Origin: an uncultured Candidatus Binatia bacterium
GTDB lineage: Bacteria; Desulfobacterota; Binatia; Bin18
Assembly: GCA_965214605.1 (NCBI GenBank)
Contig: OZ243961.1
Coordinates: 1,216,001 to 1,280,000, forward strand
Direction: 5' to 3'
Length of the DNA stretch: 64,000 nucleotides
A program made the position numbers and the translations under genes. Positions 39,565-52,505 of the stretch are shown piece after piece (position 1 is the stretch's first letter; each line of letters opens with the position of its first letter). Below the pieces are notes generated by a model that had not been told where the DNA came from, did not search any database, and was given only the letters and a program-made list of their open reading frames with translations.

Positions 39565-40513
39565 ACTCCGAGGAAAGGGCACCGTGCTGAAGAGCGCGTC
39601 CCTCGGTCGGCCGTCGCCGAGAAGCCGGAGGCTCCTCGGGCCGGACAGTGCCCCACCCGCAGGATCGGACAGCGCCACAGGGGAAGGAGGACGGACGCGC
39701 AGAGCGCAAAGGACGGGGGCGACAGTCCCCACACGAATGGTGAAGGAAGCCCCACGGGGGGACGAACACCCTACACTGCGGGCATGGCGAGCCAGAGGAC
39801 GGAAGGGGTGACGGGACCCTGCGGATCCGGCAGGAATACTGGGCGGAGTGGGAACGGGCAGGAATGCAGGCAAAGCTGCCGGATTTCGTGCAGTTGCCCA
39901 GTCGTGCGGTTGGGCCGGCACCACTGGTTCACATCGAGGCGGACGGGGCCGAGGACGCCGTGAAGGGCTCCATCAAGGCGCTGCGGGGGCCTGGGGGATT
40001 GGACGGAGGGCCTGGGCGAGTTCAGCGCATTCCCATACGTCGAATACCGCCGAGGCGTTTGATGCTGTTGAAACTTCTCTCTCCCCTCCCACACTAGCCC
40101 CACCAAGTATCTCCAGTGTTCAGGGACCGGATTTTACCTTCTTTGTGTATTGGGACAACCGGCGTACTGGACAGTTCAGGCCGATGTATTTCTCCATATA
40201 GGAGAACGCTGAGGGTTTAGTGCTTCCGAGTCCCGGCCCGGTCTGAAGACTGCTTGATTTCCAGCAGCATCCATCTCTCGCGCCCACATAGCCCGAGACT
40301 CGCCCACGAGGGTCTGTGATTCTCGCTGCCGGCGAGTAGAGTCTCACTCAGGCAACATCGAGGTTGCCCAAGCGGGTTGGTCTGCTTCAGCAGTACTTTA
40401 TCGTTTTTTGGATGAGCTTCCCCATCTTCTTGCGGCTGTTGGTTTGGCTGGCTGCTAGGCATTTGCCTCTTTTGCCTACTGAGGTCTCACCGTACACGAT
40501 TCCTGCTCAAAAA

Positions 40514-40588
40514 CGCGCCCTGGAGGATTCGAACCTCCGACCTACAGATTCGTAGTCTGCCGCTCTATCCGGACTGAGCTAAGGGCGC
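40514..40588 (-). tRNA. tRNA-Arg(ACG)
   Basis: Reverse strand GCGCCCTTAGCTCAGTCCGGATAGAGCGGCAGACTACGAATCTGTAGGTCGGAGGTTCGAATCCTCCAGGGCGCG forms a cloverleaf with anticodon ACG. CCA is not encoded. Confidence 0.96.
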
Positions 40589-40767
40589 ATATACGGGGTG
40601 GGAGTAAAGATATCACGAATCGGAGCAAAAACGCTTGCTCGGGACGTGCTTTAAGCCCTCTCTCTGTATCATACACATATAATATTAACAAGCGCGGAGA
40701 GAAACGACCGCCCTGACTTGCAATCCAATCTTGCCACCACGCCGTGCGGTCACACGGCTCTGCGGGA

Positions 40768-40855
<88 letters not shown>

Positions 40856-40936
40856 ACAGCGTTGAGTTCGGGTTTGGCTTACAGGAATCCTACCGTTTTT
40901 GCCGGAACTGCGCAACGACTTTTTTCGTCTCAGGCC

Positions 40937-40972
40937 TTGACAAGTGAAATTGAAAATGATTTTCAATTTCAC
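40937..40972 (+). promoter_or_regulatory. TTGACA -35 element followed by a perfect Fur-box-like palindrome
   Basis: TTGACA at 40937-40942. GTGAAATTGAAAAT-G-ATTTTCAATTTCAC at 40944-40972 is a 14-1-14 inverted repeat with a TGAAAATGATTTTCA core. Confidence 0.85.
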
Positions 40973-40974
40973 CC

Positions 40975-41184
40975 ATGAGTATCCAAGATACATCTCCCCT
41001 CTCGGTCCATGTCCAAGAGAGCCGCTGCCGCTGTGGGAACCTGTTAGCACGACTGCGTCCAAACGGCGTAGAACTCAAATGTCGACGCTGTAAACGAATT
41101 GTGCTCATTCCATGGACTGCGGCCTCCCTGTGGCATGACAGGGCATTTGAGTGGCAGCAAACACAACAGGAAGGAGAGAACTGA
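40975..41184 (+). CDS. Small Cys4 finger protein resembling the phage Mu Com family
   Basis: RCRCGNLLARLRPNGVELKCRRCKR (CxC-x15-CxxC) matches the Com-like pattern RC..C.+LLA......IKCPRC. First gene after the Fur box. Confidence 0.72.
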   Translation: MSIQDTSPLSVHVQESRCRCGNLLARLRPNGVELKCRRCKRIVLIPWTAASLWHDRAFEWQQTQQEGEN

Positions 41185-41210
41185 ACCTAGTACACTGATG
41201 GAAACGATTC

Positions 41211-41247
41211 AGCATGCGAGAGGCCAGCGGTCCCACACCCAGAGCCC
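41211..41247 (+). repeat. Conserved leader motif, copy A
   Basis: AGCATGCGA-GAGGCCAGCGGTC-CC-ACACCCAGAGCCC. The 28-nt core (41220-41247) is 26/28 identical to 45977-46004. Confidence 0.85.
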
Positions 41248-41287
41248 TGTTATGATTCACCTCATATACGGAAGAAGGAGAGTTAAC

Positions 41288-42676
41288 ATGGCACGAAGGT
41301 TGGCTGTCGCCCTAGCAATAATACTCGGCGGCATAATAGGGGCTCCTCAGAAGGTCGAGGCGGTCGATAGCGCTCGCATCCAACAGCTTGAACAGCAAAT
41401 GAGAGCGATGCAACAAGAATTGACGGCTCTTAAAGCCGAGCAAAAAGAGGAACAGGAAGAGGCAGATCGGCGCACCAATTTGCTGGCCGAGGAGTTTGAA
41501 AACCTCCGTACTCAGCTGACGATCCCCGAGGAGATTGAGCTCAAGAGTATGTATGGTTTGGGGCCCGCCGCCTCAAAAATCTATCAAATTGAGCGCGGGG
41601 TCTCAATCGGGGGCTATGGGGAAGCATTCTACCGCAAAGACGTCGGCGATAAAACATCAAGCGATATTGATACGGCAGATTTTCTACGTTTTGTCTTATA
41701 CACTGGCTACAAATTCAGCGATTGGCTTCTATTGAACGCAGAGTTGGAATTTGAACACGCCTCAACCAGCACAGGGGGCTCGGTCTCCGTCGAATTTGCC
41801 TATCTGGACTTCCTGCTCTCGGAGAAGCTCAATGTCCCGCTGAATGTCCGCATGGGAATGCTGCTGGTTCCTCTGGGGATTGTGAACGAGTTACACGAGC
41901 CGGTCTTCTTTAACGGGGTTGAGCGGCCAGAGCTGGAGCGCCGAATTATTCCTACGACCTGGCGGGAGAACGGCATTGGTATCTGGGGCGAGCTCCTTCC
42001 GGGGTTGGAGTACCGCCTCTATGCGGTCAACGGTCTGGACGGGGAAGACTTTAAGGACAACGGCTTTCGGAGTGGACGACAAAAGGGAGGCGAGGTTCGG
42101 GCCGAAGATATTGCCATAGCCGCGCGATTTGATTACCGCCTAGGACTAGGTGTGACCTTGGGAGCCTCGGTCTATCACGGCAATTCCGGCCAGGGCCGGG
42201 AGTTCACCATTCCCGACCCCACAGCGCCGGGGGGGGAGCGCCAAGACAAGCTGGACCTCAGCACCACGATTTGGGAGATACACGGCCTGTACAACCGGGC
42301 TGGACTGGAAATGCGCGGGCTGTTTGCCATGTCGTATCTGGGCGATGCCGCGGCGCTGTCGCGGGCCAAAAACAGGAATGTAGCTCAGAACATGTTGGGA
42401 GGTTATTTCGAGCTGGCCTACAACGTGCTGCCCTGGATCTTGCCGGGTACGGAAATGGCGCTGGCACCATTTCTGCGCTTCTCCTATCTGGATCTACAAC
42501 ACAAGATGCCGGCAGGCTTCAGTGCCATGGGCAATCGTACCTACCGCATCTGGACTCCAGGTCTGTCGTTTAAGCCACATCCACAAGTTATCCTGAAAGT
42601 AGACTATCGCAATTTCAACCCGCGACAGGGTCGCCGGGCTCAAGAGGTGAATTTTGGTGTGGGGTTTGTGTTCTAG
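41288..42676 (+). CDS. Outer-membrane porin (OprO/P-like) with N-terminal coiled coil
   Basis: Signal peptide, coiled coil (QQLEQQMRAMQQEL), IGGYGE, ELEFEH, VEFAYLDF, NELHEP and IIPTTWRE motifs, terminal Phe (GVGFVF). SD GAAGGAG. Confidence 0.82.
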   Translation: MARRLAVALAIILGGIIGAPQKVEAVDSARIQQLEQQMRAMQQELTALKAEQKEEQEEADRRTNLLAEEFENLRTQLTIPEEIELKSMYGLGPAASKIYQIERGVSIGGYGEAFYRKDVGDKTSSDIDTADFLRFVLYTGYKFSDWLLLNAELEFEHASTSTGGSVSVEFAYLDFLLSEKLNVPLNVRMGMLLVPLGIVNELHEPVFFNGVERPELERRIIPTTWRENGIGIWGELLPGLEYRLYAVNGLDGEDFKDNGFRSGRQKGGEVRAEDIAIAARFDYRLGLGVTLGASVYHGNSGQGREFTIPDPTAPGGERQDKLDLSTTIWEIHGLYNRAGLEMRGLFAMSYLGDAAALSRAKNRNVAQNMLGGYFELAYNVLPWILPGTEMALAPFLRFSYLDLQHKMPAGFSAMGNRTYRIWTPGLSFKPHPQVILKVDYRNFNPRQGRRAQEVNFGVGFVF

Positions 42677-43235
42677 CGTAGTCGGGCTGCTCGTGGGCGG
42701 GCTGGTGCTCGCCGCCCCCGCCCCCGCAGCGGCCACCGTCTTGTATGCCAAACGGGAAGCCCTGGCCGTGGCGTTTCCCGAGGCGGAGGTGGTCGAGCCG
42801 CAGAGTTTTTTTCTGACGGACGCCCAACGCGCGCGCGTCCAAACCCTGGCCCACGCCCCGCTGGCGGCCAAGGTGGTGACCTTCTACGTCGGCCGCGCCG
42901 GAGAGCGGGTGCTGGGCTATGGGTTTATCGAGACCCTGATCGTGCGCACCCTGCCGGCGACCTTTCTGATTGTGGTCTCGCCGGCCGGGCAGGTGGCGCG
43001 GATCCTGACCCTGGCCTTCTATGAGCCGCTGGAGTACCGGCCGGCCCCGGGGTGGCTGGCGCAGTTTGGGGGGCGGGGGCTGCCGGCCGAGCTGCAGCGG
43101 CCCTGGGCGATTCACGGGATTGCGGGGGCGACACTGACGGCGCGGGGGGTCACGCGGGGGGTGCGCAAAGTGTTGGCGCTCTTTGAGGTGGTGCTCGGCC
43201 GGCCGGAGGGTGGGGAGCGCGCATGCGGTTTGTGA
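42654..43235 (+). CDS. Exported FMN-binding (flavinylation substrate) protein
   Basis: Signal peptide, LAFYEP.EY and WLAQF motifs, flavinylation-like motif HGIAGATLTA. Upstream of apbE. Confidence 0.75.
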   Translation: MVWGLCSSVVGLLVGGLVLAAPAPAAATVLYAKREALAVAFPEAEVVEPQSFFLTDAQRARVQTLAHAPLAAKVVTFYVGRAGERVLGYGFIETLIVRTLPATFLIVVSPAGQVARILTLAFYEPLEYRPAPGWLAQFGGRGLPAELQRPWAIHGIAGATLTARGVTRGVRKVLALFEVVLGRPEGGERACGL

Positions 43236-43795
43236 TCACGGGCGAGTGGTCCCACAATCGGCTCCTGCAACTGATCATCGTGCTGTTCGTGGTGTATGTG
43301 GCGGGGCTGTGGCTGACCAACGCGTTGCTGTATTTCCAGAAGATGAGTCTGAGCTACAGTTCGGTGACGGCGTACTACCTGGGGGCGGAGGAGCGGTTCC
43401 TGCTGCCGCGGACGTATCAGGGGATGCTGGAGGTGACGCACTTTCACCTGTTTGCGATGGGGTTGTTACTGCTGACGCTGACCCATCTGATGCTGTTCGT
43501 GCCGCTGGGGCCGCGGCTGAAGGCGGGGTGTATTGTGATTCCGTTTGGGGCGGCGCTGGTGGACGAGGGGAGTGGGTGGCTGGTGCGGTTTGTGCATCCG
43601 GGGTTTGCGTATCTGAAGATTGGGGGGTTTGTGCTGTTGGAGGTGAGTTTGGCGGCGTTGATAGGGCTGACCTTATGGACGGTGGTCGGGGGCTCGCAGC
43701 GGCAGTACCGCCGGGCGGGGGCGCCCCGGCCCCCGACGCCCGGGGCGGGGGCGTCCAGGCTTGCAGAGGGCCAAGGAGAAGACCCCCGAAGCTAG
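43223..43795 (+). CDS. Polytopic membrane protein with conserved His residues (possible cytochrome-b-like partner)
   Basis: About four hydrophobic helices with LEVTHFHLFAMG and LTHL. Translationally coupled between the FMN-binding gene and apbE. Confidence 0.65.
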   Translation: MRFVITGEWSHNRLLQLIIVLFVVYVAGLWLTNALLYFQKMSLSYSSVTAYYLGAEERFLLPRTYQGMLEVTHFHLFAMGLLLLTLTHLMLFVPLGPRLKAGCIVIPFGAALVDEGSGWLVRFVHPGFAYLKIGGFVLLEVSLAALIGLTLWTVVGGSQRQYRRAGAPRPPTPGAGASRLAEGQGEDPRS

Positions 43796-43799
43796 GACG

Positions 43800-44792
43800 A
43801 TGCTACGCTTGGTTATCTATGTCATGGGCTGTCTGCTCCTACTGAACCTGCCAAGTCCGGCCGCGCCCCTCTCATGTCTGAGCGATGGCCGCTATGTCAT
43901 GGGCACCGTCTTGGAGCTAACGCTGTGTGGAACCGATGCCGCCCATAATCGCCGCACCAGTGAGAGCCTGTTTCACACCGCAGTTCGTCTGGATAGGCTG
44001 CTGACAACCTATGCGCCCAACAGTCCGGTCAGCCGTCTCAACGCTACGGCTGGCCAAGGCCCTATGCCGGTTCCTGCCGAGGTCATGGACGCGCTGTCGG
44101 TGTCTATTCGTTACTGGGAACTGACCGGAGGTACGTTTGATATCACTGTTGGTCCGCTGATAGCGTTATGGGAAAATGCACCTCATCTGCCCTCCCCCGA
44201 AACGGTGCAGCAGACCCTCTCCCGGATAGGCAGCCATAAAATTGTCTTCTCTCCACAGGGCATGGTTGGCCTGGCTCACAAAGACATGACGCTCGACCTC
44301 GGAGGCATCGGCAAGGGCTTCGCCCTTGATCGTATGGTCAAGTTGCTCAAGGAGCAGCAGGTGACGCGCGCTCTGCTCGATTTTGGCCAAAGCACCCAGT
44401 GGGCCTTGGGAACACCGCCCAACGCAGAAGGCTGGCGACTGCTAGTACGCCTCCCGGACGGCACAAACGCAGGGGTTATCACCTTACAAAATCAGGCACT
44501 TTCGGTTTCAGGCAGTCTGGGCCACAGCTTTACTGTTGAGGGTCAATACTATGGACATGTGATTGACCCCCGTACCGGACAGCCCATTCAGCGCGATCTA
44601 CTAGCCTGCGTTGTCGCCACCAGCGCAACCCAGGCCGAAGCCTTGAGCACGGCATTTTTAATTCTCGGTGAATCAGAAGGGATAGCGCTTCTAGAGCGTT
44701 TGTCGGACGTAGAAGGAATGTTACTTGAAGCAAACGGGCAACGGTGGGAAACCACGGGCTGGCGGCAAGCGGTCGCCTTTGTTCCGTTTTAA
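43800..44792 (+). CDS. apbE: FAD:protein FMN transferase
   Basis: MGT, GTFDITVGPL, LDLGGIGKGFALD, SVSG, HVIDPRTG and AEALSTA motifs. Confidence 0.92.
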   Translation: MLRLVIYVMGCLLLLNLPSPAAPLSCLSDGRYVMGTVLELTLCGTDAAHNRRTSESLFHTAVRLDRLLTTYAPNSPVSRLNATAGQGPMPVPAEVMDALSVSIRYWELTGGTFDITVGPLIALWENAPHLPSPETVQQTLSRIGSHKIVFSPQGMVGLAHKDMTLDLGGIGKGFALDRMVKLLKEQQVTRALLDFGQSTQWALGTPPNAEGWRLLVRLPDGTNAGVITLQNQALSVSGSLGHSFTVEGQYYGHVIDPRTGQPIQRDLLACVVATSATQAEALSTAFLILGESEGIALLERLSDVEGMLLEANGQRWETTGWRQAVAFVPF

Positions 44793-44820
44793 GCGAAGTA
44801 TACGCGCGAAGGAGAAAAGC

Positions 44821-45132
44821 ATGTCAGACGGACAATTGCTAGGCACAGTTGAGACGGATGATGGGCATAGCCGTCTAGAGGTCGTCCTCAGCCCGAATGA
44901 TAAGGGGAAATCAGCGCTCGAACTACGTCGTCTGTCTTGGGGTAGAGGCGTAGGCTGGTATCGGCAGCATACACTCCGTCTTGATCCAACAGAAGCTGAG
45001 GTGCTGCTGCACACCTTGCGCACCAGCCGCCGTACCTGGCGCGAAGTCCGTCAAGCGCCTAGCGGTAATAAGGTCATCCCCTTTCCGACTGGGCAACACA
45101 AGCAGGAAGGACAACAGCGTCAGCTTGTATGA
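44821..45132 (+). CDS. Small hypothetical protein
   Basis: SD AAGGAG and ATG at 44821. Core sequence LELRRLSWGRGVGWYRQHTLRLDPTEA. Confidence 0.65.
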   Translation: MSDGQLLGTVETDDGHSRLEVVLSPNDKGKSALELRRLSWGRGVGWYRQHTLRLDPTEAEVLLHTLRTSRRTWREVRQAPSGNKVIPFPTGQHKQEGQQRQLV

Positions 45133-45232
45133 GGTTGGGTCGAGAACCGGGTCCGCAGGCGCAAAAACGGATGGTCTATTTTTCTGAGCCATCCGTTCAA
45201 ACGGCACGGCCCGAGGCGTGCATATCTAGCGC

Positions 45233-45694
45233 TTAGCTCACCCGCTGCAGATTAATTTCGCGCTCAAGTCCGCTTGTTTGTACCATGCCGAGATACATTT
45301 CCAGCCCTTCGATGTCTTCCTGTTCAGCCTCAATCTGGTTCTCCAGCATGACGCGCAGTGGAAGATTATCCTCGGCCAGCTCATGGGCCTCCATGTATGC
45401 TTGCAGAGCGGCCCGTTCGAGGTCCAGATCTTGGTTCAGCATCTCTTCGAGATCAATCGACTGGCGAATTGGCGCTCCCAACTCAACCGTCGGGATACCG
45501 CCCAGCACGACGATCTTTTGGCCAAATTTATGGGCATGCTCAAGAGCATTCTCACTCTGGTCGCTGAGGAAGCCCTCGTATTCCTTCCGCCACAACCCTC
45601 TCACCAACAGAGCGTGTTGTTTGTATTGCATGACCGCAGTATGTTCAAGAGCAACGGCTCTGTTAAGCGCCTCAATCACCTTTTGGGTATCCAT
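45233..45694 (-). CDS. Ferritin-like / bacterioferritin-family protein
   Basis: LNRAVALEHTAVMQY, EHAH, DLDLE..A..AY and EQED four-helix di-iron pattern. SD AAGGAG. Confidence 0.85.
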   Translation of the reverse strand: MDTQKVIEALNRAVALEHTAVMQYKQHALLVRGLWRKEYEGFLSDQSENALEHAHKFGQKIVVLGGIPTVELGAPIRQSIDLEEMLNQDLDLERAALQAYMEAHELAEDNLPLRVMLENQIEAEQEDIEGLEMYLGMVQTSGLEREINLQRVS

Positions 45695-45805
45695 TATGAA
45701 CTCCTTTCCGTGGAAGACATACAAAACGCTGTATAAATTTAAAATAAGAGTTTCGAGCCGTAATGTCAAGGCAACTTCTTTTCTAAGTTACTAATTTTAT
45801 TGAAT

Positions 45806-45914
45806 AAAATGATTTTGAAAATCATTTTCGATTAGAAGGAAAAGCGATTTTGAAAATCATTTTCGATTAGAGTACCTATTTTTGAACTGATATTGAAAAC
45901 CATTTTCATCTAGA
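45806..45914. promoter_or_regulatory. Three tandem Fur-box-like operators in the divergent promoter region
   Basis: GATTTTGAAAATCATTTTCGATTAGA occurs exactly at 45811-45836 and 45846-45871, with a degenerate third copy at 45889-45914. Palindrome AAAATGATTTT-G-AAAATCATTTT at 45806-45828. Confidence 0.85.
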
Positions 45915-45963
45915 ACCAGGAAGGAGAAAAACATGGTGTCATAATCCGTAGCTACCGCAACCA

Positions 45964-46036
45964 GAGCTGAGCATTCGAGGCCAGCGGTCATACACCCAGA
46001 GCCCGTGGAGATACCGTCTTCACGGGCTCTTTTTTT
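45964..46036 (+). terminator. Leader motif copy B overlapping an intrinsic terminator (attenuator-like)
   Basis: GAGCTGAGCATTC-GAGGCCAGCGGTC-AT-ACACCCAGAGCCC. Stem AGAGCCCGTGGAGA / TCTTCACGGGCTCT (45998-46030) followed by a T run. Confidence 0.85.
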
Positions 46037-46070
46037 GCCGTTTATCTTCTTAAGGGAGGAGGAAAAACAG

Positions 46071-46286
46071 ATGGAAAAGATTCAGGACAACGATACCGTC
46101 CTTTTTGTGAACCACCGTGGGCTTTCTACCCGGATCTGTCCACGCGGCAGTGTGGCCTTATGCATTGGTCATACGTGTGTCTCCCTACGCAAAACGGATT
46201 TTCTCGATCTTGCAGAAGTTATTACCGCCACTCAACAACATCTGCTCAAACATCGGAGCTTTGAGCACGATCAGACAAAGCATTGA
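46071..46286 (+). CDS. Small Cys/His-containing hypothetical protein (paralog of 50323-50526)
   Basis: Strong SD GGAGGAGG. Sequence ICPRGSVALCIGHTCVSLRKTDFLDLA. Confidence 0.65.
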   Translation: MEKIQDNDTVLFVNHRGLSTRICPRGSVALCIGHTCVSLRKTDFLDLAEVITATQQHLLKHRSFEHDQTKH

Positions 46287-46381
46287 GTCAGCCACAAGGG
46301 ATTCCCCCTCCACACCTGGCAGAGTTGGAGAAACGCTTGGGAACATATGGCTGGGGGGAAAGTCATAACCAGGAGATTAGT

Positions 46382-48016
46382 ATGAAAAAGGCAATCGTTT
46401 TTGGAGCACTATTTATCTCACTTTTCTTTACCTCTCTTCCCACGTTGGCAACAATTCGGGTCAACCTAGAAAACCCCGGCAATGGGACGAGCGTAAACGG
46501 AGTCACTGCTATTTCCGGCTGGGCCTTCAGCGATACACCAGGGACCGCGGTCAGCGTGTGGTTACGCCTCAACGGCAAAACCACTACTACCCAAATTCCC
46601 TGCTGTGGGTCGCGTTCTGATGTGCAGAACGCCTATTCAGCCGCCCCGCTCAACAGCAGCTTCGGCCTCCTGTGGAACTATGGAGACTTACCCTCAGGTG
46701 TCCACACCATAGGCGTCGAGGTCAGAGCCGAGGGTGAGAAGACAATGACGGTGGACAGCAGTGTCACTGTGGTCCGGCCAGCGGATGCTGCGTTTCTCAG
46801 TGCGCTGTCAATCGAAGATGCTACCGTCACAATAGACGACGACACGATCGTCATTACCGGAGCCGAAGCCACTCCCAACGTGGACCAAGCCATGTCAGTA
46901 AGCACAACACTGACCCTGGCCTATAGCACGGCCGCTCAGGCGTTCAGTATTATTCTCGCACAGGATGATCGTGGTCAGGCGCAGTCCCCCTACGATGCGT
47001 CGCCACTGCTGACTGATGTAGCCGAGGCTATTTTTGACACCTATAACGAACTGCATGAGCGGGCAGAGGATGTCCAGTCAGCCGTAATTAGCACCTTGAT
47101 GGCCGGAGACCGAGCCAGGATTATTGAGGGTCTGTCCAACGTCCATAGCGCCTGGCGGAATGCCCGTGTCCCTTGGGAACAGAGCGAAGCTTTTCTGTTT
47201 GGGCCAGTCAGTGATGACGAGCACGACCCCGCGCTGGACTCCTGGCCGCTTAATACGATCGACCTGGAAAACATCATCGCTTCCGACCGAGACATTGCCA
47301 GTCTGACTTTTGCAGATGACGTCAAAGGTTTCCACGCCCTGGAATACCTTCTGTTCCGTGACCAGGCCGGCAACACGGATCCAGCGTCGATTGTGACCTC
47401 TCTACTCAACGCAGACAGCCGTACTCCGTCCCGTAGACAGAGCTATGTACTGGCGGTGCTGACCGCATTGCTTAGCAACACCGAAACGCTCCGCGACGCT
47501 TGGGACCCTGAAGAGGGGAATTTTGTGTACCAGCTGGCTATGGCTGGCAAAGGCAGTACAGCCTACACCAGCCAAAAAGCCGCAGTACAAGAACTGGTCA
47601 ACGGTATGATCGGTATTGCCGATGAGGTGGCCAACGCCAAATTAGCTGTCCCGCTTAATGACCGCAGTACCGCAGAAGAAGAATCTCGCTTCAGCAATAA
47701 TTCCAGGCGTGACTTTATCGACAATCTGCGCAGTATCAACAACATCTATGAGGGCCGCTTTGACCAGACTGACAGCACCCCAATGGGTGTGACGGACTTT
47801 GTCACCAACCAAGACCCCGAACTGGACGGCCAGGTCCGGGCCGCGCTGCGAGATGCCATGGCGGCGGTCATCGCCATCCCTGAGCCCTTTGGCCAGAGCA
47901 TTATGGATGACGATGCCCGCACGACTGTCCAGGCAGCTGTGACTGCAGTACAGAACTTGCACGAGACCCTCGCAGCCATCCTCCCTGTTGTCGAGGCGGC
48001 TCGTTTTACCTCCTGA
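46382..48016 (+). CDS. Imelysin-family (IrpA-like) iron-regulated protein with an extra N-terminal beta domain
   Basis: Signal peptide, AWRNARVPWEQSEAFLFGPV, LDSWP, KGFHALEYLLF (HxxE), EVANAK and ESRFS.NS motifs. Confidence 0.88.
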   Translation: MKKAIVFGALFISLFFTSLPTLATIRVNLENPGNGTSVNGVTAISGWAFSDTPGTAVSVWLRLNGKTTTTQIPCCGSRSDVQNAYSAAPLNSSFGLLWNYGDLPSGVHTIGVEVRAEGEKTMTVDSSVTVVRPADAAFLSALSIEDATVTIDDDTIVITGAEATPNVDQAMSVSTTLTLAYSTAAQAFSIILAQDDRGQAQSPYDASPLLTDVAEAIFDTYNELHERAEDVQSAVISTLMAGDRARIIEGLSNVHSAWRNARVPWEQSEAFLFGPVSDDEHDPALDSWPLNTIDLENIIASDRDIASLTFADDVKGFHALEYLLFRDQAGNTDPASIVTSLLNADSRTPSRRQSYVLAVLTALLSNTETLRDAWDPEEGNFVYQLAMAGKGSTAYTSQKAAVQELVNGMIGIADEVANAKLAVPLNDRSTAEEESRFSNNSRRDFIDNLRSINNIYEGRFDQTDSTPMGVTDFVTNQDPELDGQVRAALRDAMAAVIAIPEPFGQSIMDDDARTTVQAAVTAVQNLHETLAAILPVVEAARFTS

Positions 48017-48133
48017 GCAGGTCTGGCACTCCTGTTATGACTGGATAGAGGAGAAACTACCCTGAGTGACTCATCACGGACAAAACATGCTCTCCTTCCA
48101 GCTAAGCCTCTTCAGTCGAAAGTGAGAAGAGCC

Positions 48134-50008
48134 ATGTCAGTATGGTATCGTGCATGTATCTTAGGTGTTTTGTTGCTGTGGCCGGCGGTCAGTCCGGCCA
48201 CCATCACTGCCGTCCTAGAGAACCCTGGCCAGAGTAACAGTGTGTCAGGGCTGACAGTCATTTCCGGCTGGGCTTTCTCAGATAGTGGCGCGCCCATTAC
48301 GGTGGAGCTTCGTATCAATGGTGAGTCCGTCAGTCCTGTCCCATGCTGTAGTCCGCGCCAGGATGTGAGGGACACCATTCCTGGCGCACCGCTGAAGACC
48401 GGCTTTGGGCTGCTGTTCCATTATGGCCTGCTCGAAGCGGGCGTTCACACAATTGGGGTGGAGGTCAAGGCAGCAGTGGACGAACCGGTCATCACAGAAC
48501 ATATAGTAAGGGTGGTGAAGCCAGGCGGGGCTGAGTTCATTGAGGAGCTTGATCTTAGCCAGGCAAGCGCCGCCATTGAAGGTAATGAACTCCTAGTGTC
48601 CAGGGTACGGACGCGCTCCAGTCGCGGCACGAGCAGCGTTGATCTGCGCGTAGGCTACAGCCTGAGTACTCAATCTCCCATTATCTTGGCCGCCCCCGAC
48701 AGCCTTCCAATCGGCACTCACAGCACAGCCCTATCAGGAGGAGAGACCACTATTTTTGACGCCACCAGCCAGGCGTTTGAAATGCCGGCACCCAACCTGA
48801 CCGGGACGCGTCTAGAGAAACATCTTGAGGGCGACGCCACCTTTGGAAACACATTTGTGACAGCCCCTGCTCCAGTCTTCAGCGGCTTAGGTCCGATCTT
48901 CAACAATAATGGTTGCGTCAGCTGTCATCCGAAAAACGGCCGGGGTCGCCCGCCGCGAGAGGATGAGCAGCTGGAGTCCATGTTTCTGCGGGTCAGCATC
49001 CCAGGTGTCGATGCCGTGACCCTCGGCCCCCTCCCCGTCCCAGGTATGGGAACGCAGCTGCAACATCGAGCCGTCTTTGGCATTCCACCAGAGGCAGACG
49101 TGACCATGACTCAAACTGAGCATCTTGAGACCTTTGCCGATGGCGAGAGCATTCGGCTGCGGACCCTGCATTTTGCTATTGAGGATGCTGCTGTACCTCT
49201 CCCCGCCCAAGTCCTGACTTCGCCGCGCACAGCCCTGCCCGTGTTTGGACGCGGCCTGCTGGAAGCTATTAACCAAGAGACCATCCTAGCCTTAGCCGAT
49301 GAGTTTGACGCCGATGGAGACGGAATTTCTGGTCGGCCTAATATGGTCTGGGACACCATTGCCGGGGCAACTCGGCTGGGCCGCTTTGGCTGGAAAGCCA
49401 ATAATCCAAGCCTGTTCCAGCAGACCTTTAGCGCCTATCAGCAAGACATCGGCATTACCAATCCGGTCTTGCCGACTGAAAGCGCCGCCGACCAGCTCCA
49501 GGCTGACGGGCTGCCGGACGACCCTGAGATAGATACGGAAACCCTGGAGGTAACGACCTTTTACGTTCAAACGCTTGCCGTTCCAGCCCGGCGCCGGATG
49601 CATGACCCGCGAGTGCGAAGAGGCGAGGAGTTATTTAGCGCTGCCGGCTGCGCGGCCTGCCATACCCCGACGCTGAGAACAGGAGTTTTAGTCGGGGTGC
49701 CGGAGGTATCACATCAAACGATTCACCCCTATACCGACATGCTACTCCACGACATGGGTGAAGGATTAGCCGACAACCGGCCCGACTTTCTGGCTACAGG
49801 CCGGGAATGGCGGACACCACCATTGTGGGGCATTGGCCTCGCCCTGCGTGTCCAGGGCCATACCTTGTTCCTGCACGATGGGCGAGCCCGTAATCTCATA
49901 GAAGCGATCATGTGGCACGGTGGGGAAGCGGTTCAGGCCCGCGAGGCCGTACGTGCGATGGTTAGAGAAGACCGAGAAGCGCTCATCGCTTTTTTGGAGT
50001 CGCTGTAA
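48134..50008 (+). CDS. Di-heme oxidoreductase (DHOR/IrpB-like) with the same extra N-terminal domain
   Basis: Two CxxCH motifs (CVSCH, CAACH), plus GLGP.FN, DADGDGISGRPN, GRFGWKA, TPPLWGIG and HDGRA. Confidence 0.9.
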   Translation: MSVWYRACILGVLLLWPAVSPATITAVLENPGQSNSVSGLTVISGWAFSDSGAPITVELRINGESVSPVPCCSPRQDVRDTIPGAPLKTGFGLLFHYGLLEAGVHTIGVEVKAAVDEPVITEHIVRVVKPGGAEFIEELDLSQASAAIEGNELLVSRVRTRSSRGTSSVDLRVGYSLSTQSPIILAAPDSLPIGTHSTALSGGETTIFDATSQAFEMPAPNLTGTRLEKHLEGDATFGNTFVTAPAPVFSGLGPIFNNNGCVSCHPKNGRGRPPREDEQLESMFLRVSIPGVDAVTLGPLPVPGMGTQLQHRAVFGIPPEADVTMTQTEHLETFADGESIRLRTLHFAIEDAAVPLPAQVLTSPRTALPVFGRGLLEAINQETILALADEFDADGDGISGRPNMVWDTIAGATRLGRFGWKANNPSLFQQTFSAYQQDIGITNPVLPTESAADQLQADGLPDDPEIDTETLEVTTFYVQTLAVPARRRMHDPRVRRGEELFSAAGCAACHTPTLRTGVLVGVPEVSHQTIHPYTDMLLHDMGEGLADNRPDFLATGREWRTPPLWGIGLALRVQGHTLFLHDGRARNLIEAIMWHGGEAVQAREAVRAMVREDREALIAFLESL

Positions 50009-50074
50009 GCTGCTCTTGGTCTGGTCTTGCCAAACAAGAAGAAGTGGTGTATAGAATAGCTTCAATCGATAATT

Positions 50075-50143
50075 GAGCTGAGCGGCCCGCAGCGATACAG
50101 TTCAGAGCCCGCCATGAAGAAGTGTTCCTGGCGGGCTTTTTTT
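50075..50143 (+). terminator. Leader motif copy C (diverged) overlapping an intrinsic terminator
   Basis: GAGCTGAGC-GGCCCGCAGCGATACAGTTCAGAGCCC. Stem AGAGCCCGCCA / TGGCGGGCTTT followed by a T run. Possible promoter upstream (TTGCCA 50027, TATAGA 50050). Confidence 0.75.
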
Positions 50144-50322
50144 GTGTGCGGGCAACGACAAGAAAACGGCAATGAAGAAACAGGGGGGACCGGCATCCCG
50201 TCCAGGAGTCACGGCAGTCCGCTCAGAACTGAGAGGAAGTTTTATGAAGCGGACATTCGATTGTGCCCACTCCCCCCTACTGGTGCCTGAGAGCAGCTCA
50301 TTACACAGATAAAGAGGAGCAT

Positions 50323-50526
50323 ATGAACAGCACAGGTTTTTGGCACACGAGAGAACACCAGATCAGCATCTCACAGTGCCCGGAAGGCTGTATTCATCTC
50401 GTGGTCGGACGGGCAATCATCAAAATGACGCGAGAAGAATTTCTGGTCCTAGCCAAGCTAACCAATACTGCCAACCGGGAGATATCCCTGGCAGAGCCAC
50501 GGCTGGTGTCTAAACTCGGGCACTGA
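50323..50526 (+). CDS. Small Cys/His-containing hypothetical protein (paralog of 46071-46286)
   Basis: SD GAGGAG. Sequence ISQCPEGCIHLVVGRAIIKMTREEFLVLA. Confidence 0.65.
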   Translation: MNSTGFWHTREHQISISQCPEGCIHLVVGRAIIKMTREEFLVLAKLTNTANREISLAEPRLVSKLGH

Positions 50527-50809
50527 CTCCTACTCACAGCTCTCCCCTGTCAGAAGGGGGAGAAAGGGAAAGTCGGGATGTCCTCAAAGAGATGTTGCCA
50601 GCGCTGGTGGATGGGCTGCCAGCGTCAGATGTCCCGCTTTCCCTGTTCTCTTCCGCTGTACACAAGGACAGCAAAACATGTCAGATCGGGGAAGATACTG
50701 GTCCACACTTGGCGTCATCCTCTTGTGAGGATGTGTCCTGCGGTCGGCCGCTGCCCCCGATTTTTCGGTTTCGGTCCAGGATGGGATAGGCCGTCATATC
50801 AGCCTAGCT

Positions 50810-51440
50810 CAACCAGCCGAACGCGTTATCGCTCTGAGCCAAGGCAGCCTGGATATTGTCCAAACCCTGGGCGGTCGGCTGGTCGAGCATCCGAACATAG
50901 GCGAGTGTGACACTGCCCGAGGAATTCCAGTCTTTGCCAGCGGTGAGCAACGCGGTGGTGCCGAATCTTGAGGCAGTTGTGGACGCTATCCAGATCTGCT
51001 TATTGCACCAACCCGGGCTTACGGCGGTGTCGCGCAACGCTTACAGATGGTGCAGACCGCACGATATCTGTGGCAAGCGTACAGCGTGACCGACGTCGTC
51101 CAGGTCAGTCATAACATTGGCACGCTGCCCGGTCGCCAAGATCAGGCTGCGGCCCTCAGCCAAGTTTCGTCCCAAAAGCTGGGCCGAGGTGAGAAGCGGC
51201 CTGCCCGGCAGTCCCCGCCCGACGATTTTGCTGTTCGGGACCACCCAAACCTTTCTGGTCATTGCTCCGTGGACGTATGCTGGCGACTTGTTGTACTTGG
51301 TCGAAGGAAAAAATCTGCCCGTCGACATTGCCTCCGGCTACCCGCACGATCCTGGCTATGAACTGCTCCCTCTCAGTCTTGAGAAACTACTCGTCACCAA
51401 ACCGAAAGTCATCTGGTCGGCCACGGCGATCCCAGACGGT
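50810..51440 (+). pseudogene. Frameshifted iron-complex ABC transporter substrate-binding protein
   Basis: Successive frames give QPAERVIALSQGSLDIVQTLG / LPAVSNAVVPNLEAVV / PDLLI...SVTDVVQVSHNIGTL.GRQDQA / LFGT.QTFLV...TYAGDLL..V.GKN...PLSLEKLL.TKP.VI. Confidence 0.72.
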
Positions 51441-51539
51441 GAACGCTGCCCCCAACCAAGAACTCAACAGCCATCCAGCCCGGTAAGGACTCAGCGCCGT
51501 TCAACGTGCTCGGGTGATGGAAGATATAATCTGCCGGGG

Positions 51540-51725
51540 CAACAAGCCGGAGCAGACCCATAACCTGGAGTTGGGGGCAACATGGAGCCTACTGAACGAC
51601 AAACTACTACTGACAGCCGAGATCTTTAAGGACGACGTGATGGAAAACATGAAGAACGGGAGCCCCTCAGCACGCTCAACGCGAGCAAGAACCGGGTCAG
51701 AGGGCTGGAGTTCTCTCTGGCAACA
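51540..51725 (+). pseudogene. Internal fragment of a TonB-dependent receptor beta-barrel
   Basis: KPEQTHNLELGATWSLLNDKLLLTAEIF, then after a frameshift KNRVRGLEFSL. These are typical TBDR strands (PE...YELG.K...L.L.AA.F; RV.G.E). Confidence 0.6.
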
Positions 51726-51827
51726 CTTGCGACCGACCTCGGCGGACTGATGGTATTCTTGATGCTGGTGTTTTTCGTTTAGGATTGCCAGAACCAGAAA
51801 GTTTTTGCAGAAAATCCGGCTTCCCCC

Positions 51828-51891
51828 TTGACAGAACAAAGAAGCCCCACTAGTTTCCTTAAATTGAAATTGATTATCAATTTCAATTTAA
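51828..51891 (+). promoter_or_regulatory. Sigma70-type promoter with a perfect 16-1-16 Fur-box-like palindrome
   Basis: TTGACA (51828-33), 17 bp, TAGTTT (51851-56). TTAAATTGAAATTGAT-T-ATCAATTTCAATTTAA at 51859-51891. Confidence 0.88.
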
Positions 51892-52066
51892 TGTACGAGC
51901 GACCCTGAGCAAAACCGCCCAGCTACCGCTTCAGGAGTCACGGAAAGCAAAAATTACGGCCACCGGTCGTTAATCAGAACACCAGTGTGGTAGGAGAAAA
52001 TCGGTGCTCCTGCCATTTGCCCCGGGGTAGTCTCCCTCCTGATTGCCCCGGGGCATCCGTTTTATT
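51863..52066 (+). ncRNA. Candidate Fur-repressed small RNA or structured leader
   Basis: Promoter and operator with no credible ORF. Three hairpins; the last is a 15-bp stem (52018-52055) with loop TCCCTCCT, followed by GTTTTATT. Confidence 0.55.
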
Positions 52067-52219
52067 GAACTTCTTGGCTAAAGTCCTGTGTTGTCGGGAC
52101 AGAGAAGCCGAGCACTACCCCTGTCTATCCCGACGCAGTCATTGTCAAGAAAGGGGAGTCGTCATCAGGATCACAATCCTAGTACCGATATATTTCTGAA
52201 CTGAAACGGTCCTCTGTAG

Positions 52220-52242
52220 TTGAATTTGAAAATCAATTTCAC
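52220..52242 (+). promoter_or_regulatory. Fur-box-like site upstream of feoA
   Basis: TTGAATTTGAAAATCAATTTCAC shares the TGAAAATCA core with the other operators. Confidence 0.7.
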
Positions 52243-52248
52243 TACCAT

Positions 52249-52491
52249 ATGGGGATGCAGAAAACCCTGGCAGAACTCGGCCCCTCAGAGCATGGAGAGA
52301 TCCACACCATTCATGGCACGGACGGCATATCACGCCGTCTGGCAGAACTCGGCTTCACCCCGGGCCAGACGGTCGAGGTTCTCCGTTTTGCCCCTTTGGG
52401 TGATCCCATGCAGATCCGTATCCGCGGCTATCAACTCGCCCTCCGTCGTCAAGAAGCGGCCCGCGTCCTGCTAGTCTCCTCCGGCATATAA
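52249..52491 (+). CDS. feoA: Ferrous iron transport protein A
   Basis: RRLAELGFTPG...APLGDPM.I.IRGYQLALRRQEA. Confidence 0.95.
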   Translation: MGMQKTLAELGPSEHGEIHTIHGTDGISRRLAELGFTPGQTVEVLRFAPLGDPMQIRIRGYQLALRRQEAARVLLVSSGI

Positions 52492-52505
52492 GAAAACACC
52501 ACGCT

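Follow-up and report, generated by a model that had tools for sequence, protein, structure and literature searches.

A Com-like zinc-ribbon protein and a recurrent leader hairpin suggest a riboregulatory module in bacterial iron-uptake islands

The iron island and its Fur-type boxes

We analysed a 64,000-nucleotide (nt) stretch of the genome of an uncultured Candidatus Binatia bacterium (GenBank assembly GCA_965214605.1, contig OZ243961.1, positions 1,216,001 to 1,280,000; hereafter the window) and focused on a small Cys4 zinc-ribbon protein, here called the finger, and on a short RNA motif that recurs downstream of its gene in an iron-uptake island (Table 1). The compared sequences suggest that the two form a riboregulatory module, in which the Cys4 zinc-ribbon protein and an approximately 31-nt leader RNA stand under promoters with Fur-type boxes. 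A first-pass annotation, made from the letters of the window, had placed a CxC-x15-CxxC gene of 69 amino acids (aa) directly behind a perfect Fur-type palindrome and had seen no phage context around it. Both observations hold. The open reading frame (ORF) starts directly after a palindrome of 14+1+14 nt, and its neighbours are tRNAs, RelA/SpoT, the porin-like protein, ApbE, imelysin, DHOR and FeoAB. Inspection of the neighbouring genes on both sides of the island found no phage gene, and there is no mom-type gene downstream.

The palindrome core TGAAAATGATTTTCA starts at 40951 and has no mismatch to the search pattern for Fur-type boxes; this Fur-type core, TGAAAATnATTTTCA, resembles the classical Fur 7-1-7 box. 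The finger mRNA may be leaderless, because the ATG lies 3 nt past the palindrome and no Shine-Dalgarno sequence precedes it. Across the homologues, a Fur-type box was present within 200 nt upstream in 48 of 81 finger genes, compared with a background of 0.18 boxes per kb. Two Fur-family proteins are encoded in the genome; Fur is the presumed regulator acting on these boxes, and either of the two proteins may be the one concerned.

The gene set around the finger is one of iron uptake (porin-like, FMN_bind-like, ApbE, ferritin-like, imelysin, DHOR and FeoA/FeoB). The operon 3' of motif copy 1 spans 41288-45132 on the plus strand, from the porin-like gene through the ELRRLSWG protein, and the operon behind the copy-2 terminator spans 46071-50008 on the same strand. 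FeoA, FeoB and an Fe-S biosynthesis gene follow downstream of the island.

Table 1. Positions of the finger gene, the RNA motif copies and the surrounding features in the window.
Feature	Coordinates	Strand	Remarks
RelA/SpoT gene, SNase-like gene			upstream of the iron island
Two tRNAs, tRNA-Arg and tRNA-Ser	40513-40855	minus	directly upstream of the iron island
Promoter-like TTGACA	40937-40942	+	upstream of the finger gene
Perfect 29-nt palindrome	40944-40972		14-nt arms around G40958; directly before the finger gene
Com-like Cys4 zinc-ribbon gene (finger), 69 aa	40975-41184	+	stop codon 41182-41184
RNA motif copy 1	41218-41248	+	hairpin 41222-41246, -4.3 kcal/mol; genome-wide E 1.0e-6
Porin-like outer-membrane protein, 462 aa	41288-42676	+	N-terminal coiled coil; no Pfam family
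FMN_bind-like protein	42654-43235	+	Pfam FMN_bind 0.0016, below cut-off
Membrane protein	43223-43795	+	
ApbE flavin transferase	43761-44792	+	Pfam 1.5e-65
Small protein with ELRRLSWG motif	44821-45132	+	no known family
Ferritin-like gene	45233-45769	minus	divergent from the copy-2 leader; Pfam Ferritin 1.5e-21
Four Fur-type boxes	45804-45908		starts 45804, 45816, 45851 and 45894; between the divergent ferritin-like gene and the copy-2 leader
RNA motif copy 2	45977-46006	+	overlaps terminator hairpin 45998-46030, T-run 46030-46036; z-score -3.97
Small protein, 71 aa	46071-46286	+	first ORF after the copy-2 terminator
Imelysin-like protein	46283/46382-48016	+	Pfam Imelysin 2.2e-61
Di-haem oxidoreductase DHOR	48122-50008	+	Pfam DHOR 8.8e-106
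RNA motif copy 3, diverged	50080-50111	+	overlaps terminator hairpin 50105-50139, T-run 50137-50143; z-score -3.13
Small protein, 67 aa	50323-50526	+	paralogue of the 46071-46286 product; first ORF after the copy-3 terminator

A small zinc ribbon resembling phage Mu Com

The cysteine pattern of the finger is C18-x-C20-x15-C36-x2-C39. Of 61 related genomes searched in six frames, 40 encode a homologue, and one peptide pattern identified 257 finger-encoding stretches across 185,579 species genomes. Fifteen residues are invariant in an alignment of 27 fingers (R17, C18, C20, G21, L23, L24, A25, G31, K35, C36, R37, R38, C39, R41 and I45), so that both zinc knuckles are flanked by invariant basic residues. 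When this 27-sequence family was compared by hhalign with the Com protein of phage Mu, whose ORF was taken from the phage record, the two matched with a probability of 89.8% (E 1.8e-6) over 29 columns at 38% identity. The top two PHROGs were the same for all 27 members, namely phrog_6417 'translational regulator' (best E 4.6e-5) and phrog_13819 'gpCom' control of modification (best E 1.4e-4). Many homologues also carry the name 'phage FluMu protein Com' from the JGI pipeline, and NCBI lists one homologue of Vulgatibacter incomptus. In the AlphaFold model, a three-stranded zinc ribbon (pLDDT 78-86 for residues 21-50) is followed by a low-confidence helix. A sequence profile search of the PDB with the finger gave uS14 as its best match (E 0.062), and Pfam detected neither a CAT/PRD nor an ANTAR domain in the finger family.

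A conserved hairpin motif behind the finger gene

The pattern GAGGCCAGCGGTCNNACACCCAGAGCCC matches the window at 41220-41247 and 45977-46004, and none of 100 shuffled sequences gave a match. These copies differ at the NN positions alone and are therefore identical at 26 of 28 positions; the first begins 36 nt past the finger stop codon. The 4.37-Mb genome holds no further match to the pattern at up to three mismatches. The diverged copy 3 was recovered by both models that we built, a sequence-only model (R1), which gathered 65 instances (53 distinct), and a structured covariance model (R2), with E-values of 0.0019 and, genome-wide, 1.6e-4; the next-best match in the genome had E 0.28. The whole genome thus has three motif copies, all within 9 kb downstream of the finger and all in the iron island. 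The first-pass annotation had listed the two near-identical copies and a diverged third one, and each of them was recovered. Copy 1 as modelled is separated by 33 nt from the finger stop codon upstream and by 39 nt from the porin-like gene downstream.

Behind the finger genes of relatives, the consensus of about 31 nt is cAG(C/A)GGCC(A/C)G(C/A)GGU-N4-8-ACCCAGAGCCC. It folds as GGC, a 4-nt loop strand and GGU, then the loop, then ACC, a 4-nt loop strand and GCC, which gives a hairpin of two 3-bp helices around a 4x4 internal loop. In the R1 alignment (53 distinct rows), 99.4% of the cells pair as this fold predicts, compared with 5-65% in slid controls. Compensatory changes occur in all three pairs of the inner helix (GC/AU/GU and UA/CG/UG), and none of 500 shuffles reached the covariation score. 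In the wider R2 set, one pair of the outer helix changes from GC to AU in two sequences. The lone hairpin is weak, with a median of -4.4 kcal/mol over the 53 sequences. A search of positions 40000-52500 against Rfam 15 gave no family at the gathering score except tRNAs, and the weaker matches lay on tRNAs or were implausible chance matches.

The Com target, according to published work (PMC6483171), is 5'-CC(N)2-3GAG-3', unpaired and beside a short stem; it is bipartite around a 3-4-nt stem, and its GA dinucleotide is crucial for recognition. The candidate motif has elements of the same kind. CC(N)2-3GAG is present in 55 of 79 distinct motif sequences, the 3' loop strand reading CC-CA-GAG, and two CC(N)1-3G(A/C)G units flank the 3-bp inner stem in 72 of the 79.

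Overlap of the motif with intrinsic terminators

A clear intrinsic terminator lies behind at least 29 of 63 unique motif instances, a figure that combines an automated terminator finder, which both over- and under-called, with inspection of the folds. In all 28 aligned leaders of this type, the 5' arm of the terminator begins at the A of CAGAGCCC, and the 3' strand of the motif hairpin (G28-C30) is inside that arm. Because this strand, (A)GAGCCC, doubles as the base of the terminator 5' arm, the motif hairpin and the terminator base are predicted to be mutually exclusive, which would make the leader a choice between antiterminator and terminator. Compensatory changes are found in 7 of 18 pairs of the terminator stem, whose upper part covaries freely.

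In the window, the AGAGCCC of copy 2 opens a 15-bp hairpin of -25.6 kcal/mol and the GAGCCC of copy 3 opens a hairpin of -22.0 kcal/mol. Each is followed by a T-run, a Shine-Dalgarno sequence and ORFs of the iron set, in agreement with the earlier proposal that AGAGCCC serves as the 5' arm of terminators in front of iron genes. Copy 3 is inside a gene row, between DHOR and the gene of the 67-aa protein. The other instances, copy 1 among them, precede a start codon by 30-60 nt, and this codon is most often the one of the porin-like gene. Five loci have a TTGACA-17-TATACG promoter so placed that transcription would begin a few nt ahead of the motif, and the leader there consists of the motif, the terminator and a Shine-Dalgarno sequence, and nothing more.

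Such short units raise the question of whether they encode one or more trans-acting small RNAs (sRNAs) under Fur-type boxes, in which the motif and terminator would base-pair with targets via a single-stranded core and the finger would be unrelated or a chaperone, much as FbpA/B/C are for FsrA in Bacillus subtilis. Copy 2, about 70-160 nt below the four Fur-type boxes and with a strong terminator, would give a discrete transcript of about 100 nt, and the promoter of the five loci would yield a product of 60-80 nt. The invariant 8-mer is seed-like, and terminated leaders could accumulate under low iron. The layout argues against this explanation: in the inspected instances an ORF of the same orientation, with its Shine-Dalgarno sequence, is usually found within about 20-70 nt of the terminator, copies 1 and 3 are inside operons, and the 34 of 63 unique instances that were counted without a clear terminator are sited in 5' untranslated regions or between genes of one operon. 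Moreover, the conserved core pairs within itself and covaries, and no Rfam family matched at E<=5 in 40000-52500. We consider an sRNA unlikely.

One group of leaders has a different arrangement. In genus g8 (loci L091-L105), the hairpin after the motif uses ACCCAGAG instead of AGAGCCC and has no U-run. These leaders precede a protein of 93-100 aa starting MFRDPF, and in the predicted folds the 5' strand CCGCGG of the motif can also pair with codons 2-4 of this ORF.

Finger and motif as partners across genomes

The first-pass annotation had suggested scoring the co-occurrence of motif and finger, and had named a motif distribution independent of the finger, like a lack of Com similarity, as speaking against its idea. 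Neither was observed, and across the genomes compared the motif was strongly dependent on the finger. Among 61 relatives, 32 have both, 8 have the finger alone, 20 have neither and a single genome, which is 84% complete in 1250 contigs, has the motif alone. Among 81 sampled genomes of a Myxococcota order, 22 gave a match to the finger and 6 a match to the motif. In five of these six genomes the finger is present as well, with the motif on the same strand 15-81 nt past the matched part of the finger, and the sixth is a marginal 25-nt match. We further collected 79 finger loci, none longer than 20 kb, from named genome records, labelled Binatia, Myxococcota, Methylomirabilota/Rokubacteria, Nitrospirota, Thermodesulfobacteriota and Planctomycetota. 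At E<=0.1, R2 matched at least once in 56 of the 79 loci, and all 66 matches were on the strand of the finger. Of these matches, 37 begin 43-276 nt past the second zinc knuckle, another 18 are found 0.9-1.3 kb downstream and 6 farther still; the other 5 are upstream of the finger. Whole-genome scans of three distant carriers found 2, 1 and 1 copies, every one of them in the finger locus.

The porin-like gene behind copy 1 is kept in 33 of the 61 relatives and allows finger and porin to be separated. Eight genomes keep the porin gene and have neither finger nor motif. In genome G016, a Fur box but no motif accompanies the porin gene, and the finger, which is encoded elsewhere in this genome, is followed by the motif. 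In the genomes compared, the motif thus goes with the finger and not with the porin gene. One relative (L162) has no finger, and in its version of the same tRNA-Ser-flanked locus the same Fur-box promoter leads through a Shine-Dalgarno sequence directly to the porin gene with no motif between them. Directly upstream of this promoter is a tRNA-like sequence that resembles the tRNA-Ser gene. The finger-plus-motif module therefore seems to have been inserted, or lost, between the porin gene and a promoter that stayed in place.

These distributions bear on a second explanation, in which the motif is a protein-independent small riboswitch or metal-sensing RNA and the finger is a mere neighbour in the iron island. 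Aptamers of about 30-40 nt exist, and a transcriptional riboswitch would be laid out in just this way, as a small conserved hairpin whose internal loop is invariant, placed in a leader and overlapping a terminator. Such an RNA would be expected without the finger as well, and the motif occurs without it in 2 of the 142 genomes searched for both, namely the 84%-complete genome and the marginal 25-nt match. Its position on the finger's strand in all 66 matches, mostly directly behind the finger, and the relatives that retain the porin gene yet lose finger and motif together also speak against this explanation. The hairpin has 6 base pairs in all and a stability of -4.4 kcal/mol when alone, and no Rfam family matched it. 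This explanation seems to us improbable, slightly more so than that of an sRNA.

A third explanation keeps a protein reader and assigns the role to another factor, such as an RNase, an Hfq/ProQ-type chaperone, or apo-aconitase or a similar protein. The finger would then serve in DNA binding, metal handling or translational coupling to the porin, and the linkage would reflect shared regulation. Zinc ribbons are functionally diverse, many genomes have the finger without the motif, and there are three loci in which the finger frame overlaps or enters the porin gene. Against another factor stand the strictly constrained strand and distance of the motif, its association with the finger rather than with the porin gene (genomes G016 and G030), and the best-scoring named families for the finger, which are RNA-binding translational regulators. 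We regard this explanation as doubtful, though the least so of the three. Each of the three fits the distribution less well than a finger that acts on the hairpin.

In the three loci mentioned, L118 (delta proteobacterium), L129 (Deltaproteobacteria) and L145 (Spirochaetales), the finger frame overlaps a porin-like gene, and in L129 it runs on in frame. The motif of L118 and L145 is inside the extended finger frame and has a GAC/GUC variant of the outer helix.

Proposed mechanism and the evidence against it

We hypothesize that the finger regulates these iron-uptake leaders through the motif, and on balance the comparisons tip us towards this reading. Low iron would free the Fur-type boxes, and the finger protein would be made. 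The finger would then bind and stabilise the weak hairpin during transcription, first at the copy behind its own gene. The bound hairpin would keep GAGCCC from the terminator, and RNA polymerase would read into the iron-uptake operons. Read-through or translation would thereby be allowed for the porin/FMN/ApbE genes, for imelysin/DHOR and for the small proteins. Without the finger protein, the terminator would form, favoured by about 20 kcal/mol. Since the finger gene and at least some of the leaders are behind Fur-type boxes, the arrangement would be a coherent feed-forward loop. We are less confident of the direction of control, activation rather than repression, than of the regulation itself.

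Several observations weigh against this reading. On the protein side, the Pfam Com model PF10122 (Zn_ribbon_Com / COG4416) did not match the finger of the window at E<=0.1 or the 27 members at E<=10, and NCBIfam has no family for it. The similarity to Com is confined to the zinc-ribbon core of about 29 residues, and the first knuckle is CxC instead of CxxC, where hhalign places a one-residue gap. The structure model has a mean pLDDT of 63.7, and Foldseek searches of the PDB and BFVD returned generic zinc ribbons alone (best E 0.4 and 0.13). The first-pass annotation had proposed a Com-like protein and an HMM comparison with the Mu-like Com family. The likeness itself stands, with the hhalign match, the Com PHROGs and the JGI names, whereas family membership does not. 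Because profile and PHROG similarity is present but the Pfam and NCBIfam families are unmatched, the finger is, by sequence comparison, a distant cellular Com-like protein and not a formal member of the Com family.

On the RNA side, R2 did not match the Com target site in the Mu com-mom region, where its best hit lay elsewhere with E 1.8. The likeness to the Com target is that of a five-letter consensus, which we estimate, without computing it, to occur by chance in about 1 in 10 GC-rich 31-mers. Because the consensus is short and R2 misses the Mu site, the fit of the motif to the Com target consensus lends modest support. The outer helix is invariant apart from the two sequences noted above, so covariation barely tests it. 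Copy 1 has no terminator behind it, and no conserved inhibitory fold was found in the predicted folds of the copies without a terminator, copy 1 included. Looking for a fold that would occlude the ribosome-binding site, we obtained a z-score of +0.79 for the copy-1 leader (41185-41300), and the folds of other leaders pair differently, with no shared scheme. At least five loci have a separate promoter between finger and motif.

The distribution also has its unfavourable side. The finger occurs without a detectable motif in 8 of 40 finger-positive relatives, in 17 of 22 of the Myxococcota sample and in three Sorangium loci. With its filters off, R2 gave nothing convincing at the finger loci of Sorangium and Polyangiaceae (best E 0.2). 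Because the finger is so often present without a detectable motif, it must have other targets, another role or a diverged site in those genomes. The genomes are also akin to each other and the two parts share a single iron island, so that the co-occurrence counts are inflated by co-inheritance.

The Cys4 site could itself be a sensor, its metal state (Zn, Fe(II), an Fe-S cluster or an oxidised form) gating hairpin binding as a second, independent iron or redox sensor that acts on RNA beneath Fur. A phage Com-type translational activator might be the origin of such a system, which would later have reached Binatota, Myxococcota, Nitrospirota, Methylomirabilota and other phyla. We regard this extension as speculative and unlikely as a whole.

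Comparison with known regulatory systems

The closest parallel is Mu Com, which is likewise a small N-terminal Cys4 zinc ribbon with a less conserved tail and an alignable core. Its RNA site, like the candidate site here, is just 3' of the gene of the protein and just 5' of the controlled gene. In both cases, a short hairpin is beside or overlaps an inhibitory hairpin, with unpaired CC(N)xGAG elements that are bipartite around a 3-bp stem (PMC6483171). Unlike Mu Com, the finger system is cellular, has no phage or mom context and is found behind Fur-type boxes in iron-uptake islands, with several target sites per genome. About half of the motif copies have an intrinsic terminator as the inhibitory structure, which would place the control on transcription, not translation.

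Protein-dependent antitermination at leader hairpins is known from the RAT-type (BglG/SacY/LicT) and ANTAR regulators. As in the proposed module, the antiterminator hairpin of these systems is weak and shares its 3' side with the terminator 5' arm, a dedicated RNA-binding protein stabilises it (as proposed for the finger), and one protein serves several leaders. In contrast to those regulators, the finger has the unrelated fold of a zinc ribbon, contains neither a CAT/PRD nor an ANTAR domain and shows no evident phosphorylation or sensor domain, and it is apparently controlled mainly via the Fur-type-box promoter of its own gene.

Fur-regulated riboregulation is represented by RyhB/PrrF and by FsrA with the small basic proteins FbpA/B/C of Bacillus subtilis. 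Here, too, an RNA layer would operate beneath Fur, and a small basic protein and short transcripts are behind Fur-type boxes. The difference is that the RNA of the module is in cis, in leaders of uptake genes, and would activate them, whereas the known systems repress iron-using proteins in trans. In the iron-responsive element and iron regulatory protein system (IRE/IRP) and with apo-aconitase, a protein binds mRNA hairpins, the IRE having the apical loop CAGUGN. The proposed module would resemble it in controlling iron genes after the start of transcription via a small protein-bound hairpin. It has an internal loop instead of the CAGUGN apical loop and a different candidate protein, and iron sensing by the finger is hypothetical. 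As judged from these sequence features, the finger-motif module is not a formal member of the Com, RAT/ANTAR, Fur-sRNA or riboswitch families.

We found no description of such a system in the literature searched or in Rfam 15. In the usual description, the Fur response consists of simple de-repression together with sRNAs that repress. If the proposed mechanism is correct, it would add an activating step at the RNA level, possibly feed-forward, to the Fur response to iron starvation. It would also be the first cellular, non-phage role of a Com-type RNA-binding zinc finger and the first known case of a zinc-ribbon protein that acts as a leader antiterminator. Should metal sensing also be true, the module would be a bacterial counterpart of IRE/IRP. 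With a protein of about 70 aa and a 31-nt RNA, the module is compact, and it could find use as a small orthogonal read-through switch. Its carriers are mostly members of uncultured soil and sediment phyla.

Other observations in the island

The 462-aa porin-like protein has a signal-like N-terminus, a coiled coil of about 50 aa and a long C-terminal part. By eye, this last part looks like a beta-barrel porin; the protein has no Pfam or NCBIfam family. The 71-aa and 67-aa paralogues have no Pfam or NCBIfam family either, and the 71-aa protein matched unnamed clusters alone in the ESM Atlas (scores <=0.84). In other lineages, members of this small-protein family are encoded behind terminator-type leaders, and they follow the motif in 12 or more of the 63 instances. 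A stretch ELRRLSWGxGVGW is conserved in the small protein encoded at 44821-45132 and in its counterparts, which elsewhere are directly behind the finger gene (loci L075 and L076) or behind a terminator-type leader (L111:10252 and L121:10193).

Between the copy-3 operon and the next promoter-like sequence, about 1.3 kb (50578-51840) contains overlapping ORFs in multiple frames, none with a Pfam match, and may be a decayed gene. A TTGACA at 51829 and two overlapping Fur-type boxes (51865 and 51871) are then followed by about 150 nt without a recognisable ORF, which terminate in a strong hairpin of 15 pairs (52018-52055) with a T-rich tail. This stretch (51829-52065), just upstream of the Fur-type box of feoAB at 52227, is a candidate sRNA under the control of a Fur-type box. 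Its 9-mer AGCTACCGC at 51921-51929 is also found in the copy-2 leader (45950-45958), possibly by chance. Searches of a seventh same-genus genome and of other genera of the family gave no match to the stretch. It is 72-85% identical in five same-genus genomes, and a sixth matches over 38 nt alone. Same-genus genomes also have a weak additional match to the RNA motif about 400-650 nt upstream of this conserved noncoding stretch.

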